This document shows positions 1 to 2,284 of a DNA stretch of 16,592 nucleotides, piece by piece. The stretch is from the IMG/VR virus record IMGVR_UViG_2872169409_000009; one strand, given 5' to 3'. Under the pieces are notes generated by a model. It was not told the DNA's origin. It searched no databases and saw only the letters and a list, made by a program, of their open reading frames with translations. The first letter of the stretch is position 1. Every line of letters starts with the position of its first letter. Source of the stretch: a virus (lineage: Duplodnaviria > Heunggongvirae > Uroviricota > Caudoviricetes). The position numbers and the translations under genes were made by a program.

Positions 1-789
1 TTATTTGATTTCAATTTTGTCCCACTCCCTGCCTCTGTCATCACGATACTGTGATGCCATGGTGTCCGACTTGTGCCCGAGAAGATGTTGAGCAAACTTA
101 TCGCTTATCTGCTTCTCATAGAGTCTTGCAGACAAACTGCGCAACTCGTGAAAGGTAGGTGGATCCCCTTCGAAGGAAAGACCTGATGCTTTTCGTGCGC
201 GCATAAAATACCTTGATACTGTGCCGGATGAAAGCGGTTCACGACGAGTAGATGCAATTATGGTTTCTCCGCCAAGAATCTCTTTGCATTTATCAAGTGT
301 TTCCTTCATTGATATCCCGAGAGCATCAACATGCAATGTTGTAGGGATGGCAATTTTTACGCCTGTTTTGCTTTGCTCGACATAAAGATATCCATCTACG
401 ATATCAGACCACTTCATTTCGCATAAATCACCAACTCGTTGCCCGGTAACAACAGCCAGTTCCATTGCAAGTCTGAGCCAACATGGTGATGATTCTGCTG
501 CTTGATAAATTTTCAGGTATTCGTCAGCCGTAAGTCTTGATCTCCTTACCTCTGATTTTGCTGCGCGAGTGGCAGCGACCGGGTTTGTTGTTATATGGCC
601 TTCAGCTATTGCCTCTCGGAATGCATCGCTCAGTGTTGATCTGATTAACTTGGCTGATGCCGCCTTGCCCTCGTCTATGTATCCATTGAGCATTGCCGCA
701 ATTTCTTTTGTGGTGATGTCTTCAAGTGGAGCATCAGGCAGCCCCCTCCTTATTGCTTTAATTTTGCTCATGTAATTTATGAGTGTCTT
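1..789 (-). pseudogene. int: Lambda-like tyrosine integrase, 5'-truncated: C-terminal 262 codons only, N-terminal ~94 codons replaced by IS911
   Basis: Minus-strand ORF 1..804 translates to ...KTLINYMSKIKAIRRG...HLLGHKSDTMASQYRDDRGREWDKIEIK, near-identical to my recollection of phage lambda Int from about residue 95 to the C-terminus. The first five codons of the track ORF (TTG start, MLTTS) are encoded by the IS911 terminus at 790..804. Stop codon is at 1..3. Confidence 0.9.
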
Positions 790-797
790 TGAAGTGG

Positions 798-1637
798 TCA
801 ACAAAAACTGGCCACCGAGTTAGAGTTTTTCCAGTATCGATTTTCCGATTCGTTTGGGGGTAACCCACCGTTATATTCGTGCGGTCTTAGTGCACTGTAA
901 TATCCAACGATATAGTCCGTTATGGCGTGAGCTGCCTCGCTGAAGCTTACGTAACCCACCACCGGCATCCATTCGTTCTTCAGACTCCTGAAGAAGCGTT
1001 CCATTGGGCTGTTATCCCAGCAGTTTCCGCGCCGGCTCATACTCTGTCTGATCTGGTATCGCCACAATAACTGCCGGAACTGCCTGCTCGTATAATGACT
1101 GCCCTGATCGCTGTGGAACATCACCCCGCCGGGCTTACCACGGGTTTCCCATGCCATTTCCAGCGCTTTCATGGTGAGCCTGCTGTCCGGCGAGAACGAC
1201 ATGGCCCAGCCCACTGGTTTTCTTGCGAACAGGTCGAGAACAACGGCGAGGTACGCCCAGCGCTTACCCGTCCAGATATAGGTCACATCACCGCACCACA
1301 CCTGATTTGGCTCGGTCACGGCGAACTGCCTTTCAAGGTAGTTAGGGATAGCAACATGTTCATGACCACCACGTTTATACCGGTGAGTCGGCTGCTGACA
1401 GCTGACCAGCCCCAGCTCTTTCATGAGCCTGCCAGCAAGCCAGCGTCCCATCTGGTAGCCTCTCCGGGTTGCCATTGTGGCGATGCTTCTTGCTCCGGCC
1501 GAACCGTGGCTGATGCCATGTAGCTCAAGTACCTGACTGCGTAATACAGCCCGTCTGCCGTCTGGTTTTTCAGGACGGTTTTTCCAGTATCTGTAGCTGC
1601 TGCGATGAACCCCGAACACATGGCAGAGTGTGACCAC
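798..1637 (-). CDS. IS911 OrfB (DDE transposase catalytic domain; normally expressed as the OrfAB fusion by -1 frameshift)
   Basis: 279-aa ORF with the integrase/DDE core (..[10 protein letters not shown].., ..[22 protein letters not shown]..), in the -1 frame relative to orfA and inside the IS911 ends. Confidence 0.85.
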
Positions 1638-1663
1638 AGGATAATGCGCTCTGAGTTTCCCGA

Positions 1664-1966
1664 TTATCGAGAACTGTTCAGGGAGTCTGACATCAAGAGC
1701 GCGGTAGCCTTTTTTAATATTTCATTCTCCATTTCAATGCGTTGTAGCTTTTTCCTGAGCTCACGGATTTCAATTTGTTCCGGGGTAATGGGGGAGGCTT
1801 TTGGTGTTTTGCCCTGACGCTCATCACGCAGTTGTTTGACCCATCTTGTCATTGTGGAAAGGCCAACATCCATAGCTTTGGCGGCATCTGCCACCGTGTA
1901 TTTCTGGTCAACAACCAGTTGAGCGGATTCGCGTTTAAACTCTGCGCTAAAATTTCTTTTTTTCAT
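1664..1966 (-). CDS. IS911 OrfA (transposition regulator, HTH and leucine zipper), 100 aa
   Basis: Translation [53 protein letters not shown]...[18 protein letters not shown] matches my recollection of IS911 OrfA. The track ORF extends upstream to 2002, but the MKKRN start at 1966 is the likely real start. Confidence 0.85.
1709..1715 (-). other. A AAA AAG slippery heptamer for programmed -1 frameshifting (OrfA to OrfAB) of IS911
   Basis: Minus-strand sequence AAAAAAG near the 3' end of orfA. orfB (798..) lies in the -1 frame relative to orfA and has no independent start near the overlap. Confidence 0.6.
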
Positions 1967-2038
1967 TGGAGCACCTGTGTTGTTCTGAGGTGAGCATATC
2001 ACCTCTGTTCAGGTGGCCAAATTCAGTGTGCCACTTCA

Positions 2039-2284
2039 AAAGCTGAAAATGATGCTCTTCGGCGCAAGCTTGATAATGGTGGTCGGGTGCTCGTCAAAGG
2101 AAAATGCCCTGTGCCATCCTCAGCCGAAACCTCCAGCGCCTCCGGCATGGGCAATGATGCCACCGTCGAACTCTCTCCAGTTGCTGGACGAAACGTTCTC
2201 GGTATCCGGGACGGAATCATCAGCGACCAGACAGCATTGAGAATGCTTCAGGAGTACATCAGGATCCAATGCCTTGGGGGGTAG
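2039..2284 (+). pseudogene. Rz: Rz-like i-spanin, 5'-truncated (C-terminal ~81 codons; N-terminal TM and first coiled coil missing)
   Basis: Plus frame from 2039 reads KAENDALRRKLDNGGRVLVKGKCPVPSSAETSSASGMGNDATVELSPVAGRNVLGIRDGIISDQTALRMLQEYIRIQCLGG*, which aligns with lambda Rz from ..AKAENDALRDDVAAGRRRL.. to the ..EQCR C-terminus. The coding sequence begins abruptly at the IS911 end. Confidence 0.7.
2049..2240 (+). CDS. Rz1: Rz1-like o-spanin lipoprotein embedded in the +1 frame of Rz; annotated start and first codons lost at the IS911 junction, so function uncertain
   Basis: MMLFGASLIMVVGCSSKENALCHPQPKPPAPPAWAMMPPSNSLQ.. has a lipobox (VVGC) and proline-rich core like lambda Rz1 (..MMLCVMMLPLVVVGCTSK..KPPPPPAWIMQPP..). 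The lambda-type MLKLK n-region is replaced by IS-derived sequence; translation would have to start at the internal Met at 2049. Confidence 0.55.
   Translation: MMLFGASLIMVVGCSSKENALCHPQPKPPAPPAWAMMPPSNSLQLLDETFSVSGTESSATRQH

Follow-up and report, generated by a model that had tools for sequence, protein, structure and literature searches.

An IS911 insertion sequence (IS) separates a truncated phage integrase gene (int) from a truncated Rz spanin gene in a 16592-nt stretch of DNA, the IMG/VR virus record IMGVR_UViG_2872169409_000009, which was analysed over its whole length and is called the window below. Based on comparison with sister strains, we propose that this junction very probably arose at the end of a stepwise decay in Shigella flexneri, driven by ISs, in which the remnants of two prophages were fused, one at the classical lambda attachment site (the att-lambda prophage) and one between ybhA and pgl (the ybhA/pgl prophage). 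An earlier, sequence-only reading of the window had seen here the footprint of one deletion within one lambdoid prophage. An IS911-associated deletion and a dead remnant are borne out by the comparison, whereas the single prophage, the proposed size of 15-25 kb and the single step are not. The junction is made up of the following parts.

790-2038, minus strand: intact IS911 of 1249 nt, recognised by its inverted repeats, its domains and its identity to annotated copies; the tip of the right inverted repeat (IRR) lies at 790 and that of the left inverted repeat (IRL) at 2038
1664-1966, minus strand: IS911 orfA, with an HTH_Tnp_1 domain
798-1637, minus strand: IS911 orfB, with an rve (DDE) domain
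1709-1715, minus strand: IS911 A6G frameshift motif, AAAAAAG
787-789: left flank CTT, the last int bases ahead of IS911
2039-2041: right flank AAA, the right copy of the original 3-bp target duplication in Rz
1-789, minus strand: 3′ fragment of a lambda-type integrase gene (stop and codons 95-356), from the open reading frame (ORF) and PF00589/PF22022
2039-2284, plus strand: 3′ fragment of Rz (i-spanin), codons 76-156 of 156, from PF03245 and alignment to FDAARGOS_944 (locus L001, 12010-12255)
2049-2240, plus strand: complete Rz1 (o-spanin lipoprotein) in the +1 frame of Rz (PF06085, E=3e-21)

The orfA and orfB genes of IS911 occupy frames 0 and −1 and come with a slippery site (A6G), the ends of the element are imperfect terminal inverted repeats of the form 5′-TG...CA-3′ (it reads TGAAGTGG...CCACTTCA), and over its full 1249 nt it shares 99.0-99.1% identity with E. 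coli copies that carry the annotation 'IS3-like element IS911 family transposase'. Re-inspection of the ends confirmed that no direct repeat surrounds IS911, since its flanks are CTT and AAA, which mismatch at 3/3 positions. Nor is there microhomology with the IS911 end, since native int reads on as ctgctt. The same junction was recovered in the complete genome CP026792.1, where the window matches at 16592/16592 nt, and in an independent 143-kb draft contig, AGRC01000018.1, with 4 mismatches and 2 gaps over the window; the int-IS911-Rz join is therefore not an assembly error. Although IS911 is a multi-copy 1.25-kb repeat able to mislead short-read assemblers, we consider the chance negligible that the junction is an artefact of collapsed IS911 copies or chimeric assembly, or that a 3-bp duplication has mutated away. 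A decayed duplication is ruled out because CTT and AAA stem from unrelated genes, the uninterrupted sequences of which are known.

Among all complete E. coli genomes searched, neither IS911 junction was found; two apparent full-length matches to the junction each proved to be two separate pieces lying close by chance. A look-up of the junction-spanning 267-aa ORF found no record, and the truncated Rz 5′ product is represented by a 76-aa cluster representative only on one 574-nt metagenome contig. Two S. flexneri genomes (WACK01000005.1 and CP054913.1) carry a group II intron with a reverse transcriptase of 502-507 aa inside the same IS911 copy; the intron spans 5213-7482 in loci L013 and L017, which is equivalent to window position 1276/1277.

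The left flank is the 3′ 262 codons of a lambda-like int on the minus strand, as originally described. Residues 1-262 of the fragment align to residues 95-356 of lambda Int in PDB 1z1g/5j0n (E=1e-168), the tyrosine recombinase catalytic domain is present (PF00589, E=9e-41), and at the DNA level the identity to lambda, HK97 and HK106 is 98.6-99.3%. IS911 cuts the gene between 789 and 790, and the loss of codons 1-94 takes away the arm-binding domain and a portion of the core-binding domain. The fragment matches the att-lambda int of FDAARGOS_943, FDAARGOS_944 and VL40 at 100%. A core sequence of the left attachment site (attL) had been predicted within about 100 bp upstream of the window, and in CP026792.1 the lambda attL core GCTTTTTTATACTAA does occur, between ybhC and the P′ arm, at 74-88 nt to the left of window position 1. 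Since ybhC and the attL core adjoin it, the int fragment belongs to a prophage at the classical lambda site, of which it is the attL end. CP026792.1 is the genome of S. flexneri 61-4982, given as serotype 4b in a published table (PMC9455713).

The right flank begins in the middle of Rz, at codon 76, which also agrees with the sequence-only reading and refines it in that the embedded Rz1 gene is whole. Rz1 starts 10 nt past the IRL tip, and its partner Rz has lost the N-terminal 75 codons and with them its transmembrane domain. The same 63-aa Rz1 product is called in many S. flexneri genomes. A 75-aa hybrid ORF (2013-2240) begins within IS911 and runs into Rz1. The remnant cannot excise, regulate or lyse, as had been supposed.

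To evaluate the origin of the two flanks, we compared the window with FDAARGOS_944 and FDAARGOS_943. Of the close relatives in the E. coli collection these two, both ipaH-positive, show the least decay; the whole two-prophage interval was annotated in FDAARGOS_944 (loci L001/L004/L044, 4286289-4388237). The att-lambda prophage of FDAARGOS_944 is a complete, lambda-like siphovirus headed by a 100%-identical int. Its genes run from ybhC through int, xis, exo, bet, gam, kil, cIII, repressor, cro and cII to a toprim replication gene, nin genes, Q and its own holin, lysozyme and Rz, and its late end comprises a gpA-type terminase, portal, capsid and tail genes to J, lom and ipaHa, followed by ybhB-bioA. 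The window block of Rz, DedA, terS, PBSX terminase and DUF1073 portal genes is instead 99.4-99.7% identical to a different prophage, which lies between ybhA and pgl about 35 kb upstream and has its own integrase and excisionase, a Rac-like early region, contractile-tail/baseplate genes and ipaHb. Six chromosomal genes (pgl, ybhD, ybhH, ybhI, ybhJ and ybhC) stand between the two prophages in FDAARGOS_944. In the regions checked, FDAARGOS_943 agrees: it has the same Rz-side prophage and, some 40 kb downstream and likewise oriented, an int that is 100% identical. The order ipaH-pgl...ybhC-int is kept in S. flexneri (strain 301 and others). Rz is also contiguous with the hok-Rem-DUF1367-YbcO-DUF1133-tRNA-holin-lysozyme genes of the ybhA/pgl prophage in NCTC 9728 (CP026799.1, locus L041), JANXIZ01 (L038) and CP100042.1 (L040). 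The genes ipaHb and ipaHa end the ybhA/pgl and att-lambda prophages, respectively, and near-identical tail-fibre/DUF4376 genes precede each.

Since int and the Rz-DedA-terminase block lie in different prophages of undeleted relatives, the window does not record an internal deletion of a single prophage. A lambdoid prophage at att-lambda that lost 15-25 kb in one IS911-mediated event would fit the gene orientations, which follow the prophage order attL-int(−)...Rz(+)-late genes(+), and the attL core found left of the window. It would also fit the near-identity of the Rz 3′ part among lambdoid prophages (176 nt at 100% to the second Rz in L021), although this near-identity makes Rz alone uninformative on the prophage of origin. 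However, the DedA, terS, PBSX terminase and DUF1073 portal genes match the ybhA/pgl prophage and not the gpA/J-type late region of the att-lambda prophage, and in L041 and L038 the IS911-interrupted Rz with its duplicated AAA forms one stretch with the Q-like gene, tRNAs, holin and lysozyme that belong to the ybhA/pgl prophage. Sister strains, moreover, carry an int that continues to codon ~44, joined by a hybrid IS600 to the holin of the ybhA/pgl prophage, and the interval between the deletion endpoints before the loss was at most ~5.3 kb, mostly IS DNA. We therefore consider a single-prophage internal deletion highly improbable.

The events that joined the two prophages can be followed in sister strains. 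The sequence-only reading had suggested looking in other strains for an IS911 flanked by a 3-bp duplication, and a simple insertion of this kind, gcgAAA/IS911/AAAgctg, was found in Rz of 93-3063 (CP026768.1, locus L029), NCTC 9728 and JANXIZ01. In these three strains the Rz 5′ part reads ...gccaatgcgAAA up to IS911 (junction sequence gccaatgcgaaaTGAAGTGG) and AAAgctgaaaat beyond it, while the uninterrupted Rz of L001 reads gccaatgcgaaagctg (gcgaaagctg). Since the sisters have AAA on both sides of IS911 and the intact Rz has a single AAA, the AAA of the window is the right half of the original duplication. The 3-bp duplication is thus absent at the window IS911 and present at the same copy in L029, L041 and L038, and this undeleted AAA/AAA state bears out the view that the missing duplication marks an IS911-associated deletion. 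The window IS911 is base-for-base identical to the IS911 in Rz of 93-3063, and also to those of L026 and L019-L021. In NCTC 9728 and JANXIZ01, the IS911 in Rz differs from all other copies of this insertion by 9 substitutions in 37 nt (window equivalent 1757-1793), a cluster that looks like a gene-conversion patch from a diverged IS911.

Upstream of Rz in NCTC 9728, the holin gene carries an IS600 with a CAG duplication, an IS66-family element of 2.7 kb sits where lysozyme meets Rz, and IS2 is represented by a fragment of 282 nt. These three are the only interruptions; the Rz 5′ part is otherwise collinear with the hok...DUF1133-tRNA-holin-lysozyme segment of the ybhA/pgl prophage. In CP100042.1 (7074-10000), the IS66-family element is inverted, with 102 nt of the Rz 5′ part on one side and, on the other, the final ~61 nt at the IRL end of IS911, so this element has also rearranged the Rz spot.

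In strain 301, NCTC1, CP055132.1 (L022) and CP026765.1 (L023), int extends beyond codon 95 to about codon 44, where an IS600 follows (flank GAT; junction sequence cttcagtgatTGAGGT). On its far side this IS600 meets pflA-region sequence in strain 301, and in NCTC1, CP055132.1 and CP026765.1 it meets CAGgtcagtcc, the 3′ part of the ybhA/pgl prophage holin. The left flank of the same IS600/CAGgtcagtcc half is the holin 5′ part in L041 and L038 and int in NCTC1, L022 and L023. Because each half-junction thus occurs with other partners, the int/holin IS600 is a recombinant of the int copy with the holin copy, and this exchange of flanks shows that an IS600 hybrid, not IS911, first brought int beside the lysis genes of the other prophage. 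It was accordingly not a single-step deletion that joined the flanks. The continuation of int to codon ~44 and the holin and lysozyme genes in direct continuity, as found in these sisters, are the very observations that the sequence-only reading had named as contradicting it.

Within the sublineage marked by an IS600 in the DUF2213 gene, the junction of IS911 with AAA-Rz is constant and the left flank is variable:

93-3063 (L029): Rz 5′ part
CP026765.1 (L023): IS600 plus 20 nt of holin
window, 61-4982 (L025, CP026792.1) and AGRC01 (L024): int codon 95
UGYS01 and UAUS01 (L026 and L027): last 60 nt of int (codon ~337)

All three deletion endpoints (3/3) abut the first T of TGAAGTGG. Tests for microhomology at the three endpoints found no shared base at any of them, which rules out microhomology-mediated deletion. 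The series therefore shows an exact IS end, no duplication and an unchanged opposite junction, with L029 and L041 as undeleted comparators. The window clade carries three private derived single-nucleotide polymorphisms (SNPs), but SNP polarity yielded no order for the deletions. An apparent pgl/IS911 junction in L028 was set aside, as it lies on a scaffold with N gaps.

The interval lost in the last step amounts to ~5.3 kb as a composite of CP026765.1, NCTC1 and NCTC 9728, and to ~1.43 kb if a CP026765.1-like state was the direct precursor; the proposed loss of a 15-25 kb early and lysis region is not supported by either figure. The larger interval consists of 150 nt of int (codons 45-94), 1264 nt of IS600 and 3848 nt running from the 3′ part of holin and lysozyme through the IS66-family element and the IS2 fragment to 220 nt of Rz; most of it is IS DNA.

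Based on these intermediates, we propose a history of three steps. The first comprises insertions that are all observed in sister strains: IS911 entered Rz of the ybhA/pgl prophage with duplication of AAA, an IS600 the holin of the same prophage with duplication of CAG, and another IS600 int of the att-lambda prophage at codon ~44. In the second step, for which the exchanged flanks are the evidence, recombination between the two IS600 copies gave the order ybhC-attL-int′(codons ~45-356)-IS600-holin′-lysozyme-IS66 element-IS2 fragment-Rz 5′ part-IS911-Rz 3′ part. In the third, confined to the 61-4982 lineage, a deletion would have run from the exact IRR tip of IS911 to int after codon 94/95, leaving IS911 and its AAA-Rz junction untouched; here the endpoints are read directly from the sequences, and the mechanism is what we infer.

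Two routes could produce this last step. In route (a), the resident IS911 would have made a transposase-driven adjacent deletion by intramolecular attack from its IRR end. In route (b), a new IS911 would have inserted into int in the same orientation and then recombined with the copy in Rz, with an identical product; CCACTTCActtctgcttgattcc is the junction expected if the IS911 in int carried a CTT duplication. The window IS911 offers no discriminating SNP, since it is identical to the Rz copy of 93-3063. Under route (a), one junction should stay fixed while the endpoints on the opposite side are nested, and parsimony favours this route because route (b) needs three separate same-orientation insertions within 2.2 kb. 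We place route (a) only modestly ahead of route (b).

Several points weigh against the proposed history. The immediate precursor was not seen in the 61-4982 clade itself, and the 5.3-kb figure is composite because the left context of 93-3063 was read no further than its IS66 element. In other strains, the same IS911 copy has swapped its left flank by recombination between IS911 copies, that is, by inversion: the left flank in L021/L037 (CP044152.1/CP044155.1) reads as the reverse complement of what flanks a second, inverted IS911 in L014, and the flank of L015 (CP034931.1-type) stands in the same relation to L016. The IRR-proximal SNP 894G of the IS911 in CP026765.1 is common to recombinant IS911 copies, which hints at recombination in L023 only. 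Together, the flank swaps and 894G make a homologous-recombination route realistic. The lost DNA is presumably gone from the rest of the 61-4982 genome, the loci around window-encoded proteins having been compared. Finally, the path that placed the ybhA/pgl segment downstream of int could have been duplication, circle reintegration or paired inversions; against the FDAARGOS_944 order, the block looks like a circle junction or tandem duplication, and paired inversions could equally have produced it.

The same flank swaps, together with the high rearrangement rates of Shigella genomes described in PMC8072062, would suit a last step in which the IS911 in Rz recombined with a distant IS911 in int by inversion or translocation, the displaced flanks surviving elsewhere. 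However, a strain of this sublineage (L023) already has int 1.4-5.3 kb upstream of IS911 and likewise oriented, as do L022 and NCTC1, so that a deletion in cis needs one event and an inversion cannot yield the observed orientation. L023 and L026/L027 are further truncations of the same short interval, and among the strains examined none has an IS911 in int with any other right flank. We consider such an exchange unlikely, and retain the deletion from the IRR tip as the last step.

IS911 is inverted at this locus in CP055132.1 (L022, 8727-9975) and CP026788.1 (L016, 7976-9225), where it abuts terL or the upstream region of terS, and Rz1 and DedA are gone; these are further IS911-associated inversion or deletion products of the same copy. 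More tentatively, the IS911 in Rz may be a record, at the level of natural populations, of how the transposase of a copy-out-paste-in IS drives adjacent deletions anchored at the IS end, with three nested endpoints and one untouched IRL junction, a possibility that we put forward without leaning towards it. As part of this suggestion, the same copy also shows IS911 × IS911 inversions, the group II intron insertion and the gene-conversion patch. If it is true, IS911 in Rz would be a useful marker locus for the erosion of Shigella prophages by IS3-family elements.

The remainder of the window holds the head-gene region of the ybhA/pgl prophage and three further IS copies.

2373-2885, minus strand: gene for a DedA-family (VTT domain) membrane protein between Rz and terS (PF09335)
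3080-3844, plus strand: small terminase-like gene (terS)
3795-4462, plus strand: 5′ part of a PBSX-type large terminase gene, cut by IS2
4463-5793, plus strand: IS2, a simple insertion in the large terminase gene with the 5-bp duplication GCAAT
9411-10674, minus strand: IS600, a simple insertion in the DUF2213 head gene with the 3-bp duplication GAC
12805-14068, minus strand: second IS600, with the unmatched flanks AAT/ATA

The DedA gene, annotated WP_011069285.1 in L001 and L002, belongs to the module of the ybhA/pgl prophage. Where copies retain it, in S. flexneri as in E. coli, the gene is nearly always intact, a shorter product being found only in the draft L024, and it may be a conserved moron. 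Given terS and the PBSX-type terminase, the late region is not lambda-like. The IS600 in the DUF2213 gene marks the sublineage that contains the anchored deletion series; this sublineage is represented by 7 long loci and ~100 short contigs. The second IS600 links the head-gene region to Mu-like sequence (14066-16592), in which a Mu-type transposase gene, cut off at residue 544, is followed by Mu ner and then the Mu repressor c gene. The junction at this IS600 is common to all S. flexneri loci examined, and dcuC-pagP-cspE come after the Mu left end in sister loci.

These results imply that an IS without a target duplication between two phage genes is not to be read as the internal deletion of one prophage; in IS-rich genomes such as those of Shigella, the flanks may stem from different prophages joined by earlier IS recombination, and comparison with sister strains shows, to the base pair, in which order the events took place. 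The window is accordingly best annotated as a chimeric remnant of attL-int′ from the att-lambda prophage, a lysis/head module from the ybhA/pgl prophage and a Mu-like left end, rather than as 'defective lambda'. The locus illustrates how IS600 and IS911 jointly stitch prophage remnants into chimeras.

Compared with known systems, the left end of the locus resembles the attL-int end of lambda, HK97 and HK106 in having the attL core and P′ arm beside ybhC and near-identical int residues 95-356, but the window keeps only the last 262 int codons, without xis and without the cognate late region. Homologous recombination between IS copies is a classic cause of missing duplications. Hybrid ISs of this origin have their likeness in the int/holin IS600 of NCTC1, L022 and L023, in the window IS600 at 12805-14068 and in the IS911 flank swaps of L021 and L015; for both IS600 cases, each half of the junction recurs separately beside other partners. 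For the int/IS911 junction of the window, in contrast, no independent IS911 copy was found in int, so that this route is no more than a possibility. Related products are the tandem dimers and the products of intramolecular transposition of IS911/IS3, and for IS911 itself Turlan et al. reportedly described in 2000 a role of (IS911)2 dimers. The closest parallel to the anchored series comes from the E. coli long-term evolution experiment, in which the IS3-family element IS150 deletes adjacent DNA without a duplication and the deletions grow with time (PMC11708052). The likeness lies in the exact IS end, the lack of a duplication and the unchanged other flank, the window series adding three nested endpoints at the IRR tip. 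Unlike that experiment, the present case concerns natural isolates, from which the order of the events, like the part played by transposase, is inferred. IS1, IS2, IS4, IS600 and IS911 are the five ISs that have expanded in all Shigella and create strain-to-strain variation (Hawkey et al. 2020, PMC7373316), and the window, with four IS copies of three of these families, two of the copies being hybrid, fits this IS-driven reduction. The type of event is thus already known, and the locus is a case of ordinary IS-driven decay of Shigella genomes and prophages. Whereas Hawkey et al. 2020 (PMC7373316) and Seferbekova et al. 2021 (PMC8072062) treat this decay genome-wide, it is resolved here for one locus at the level of the base pair.

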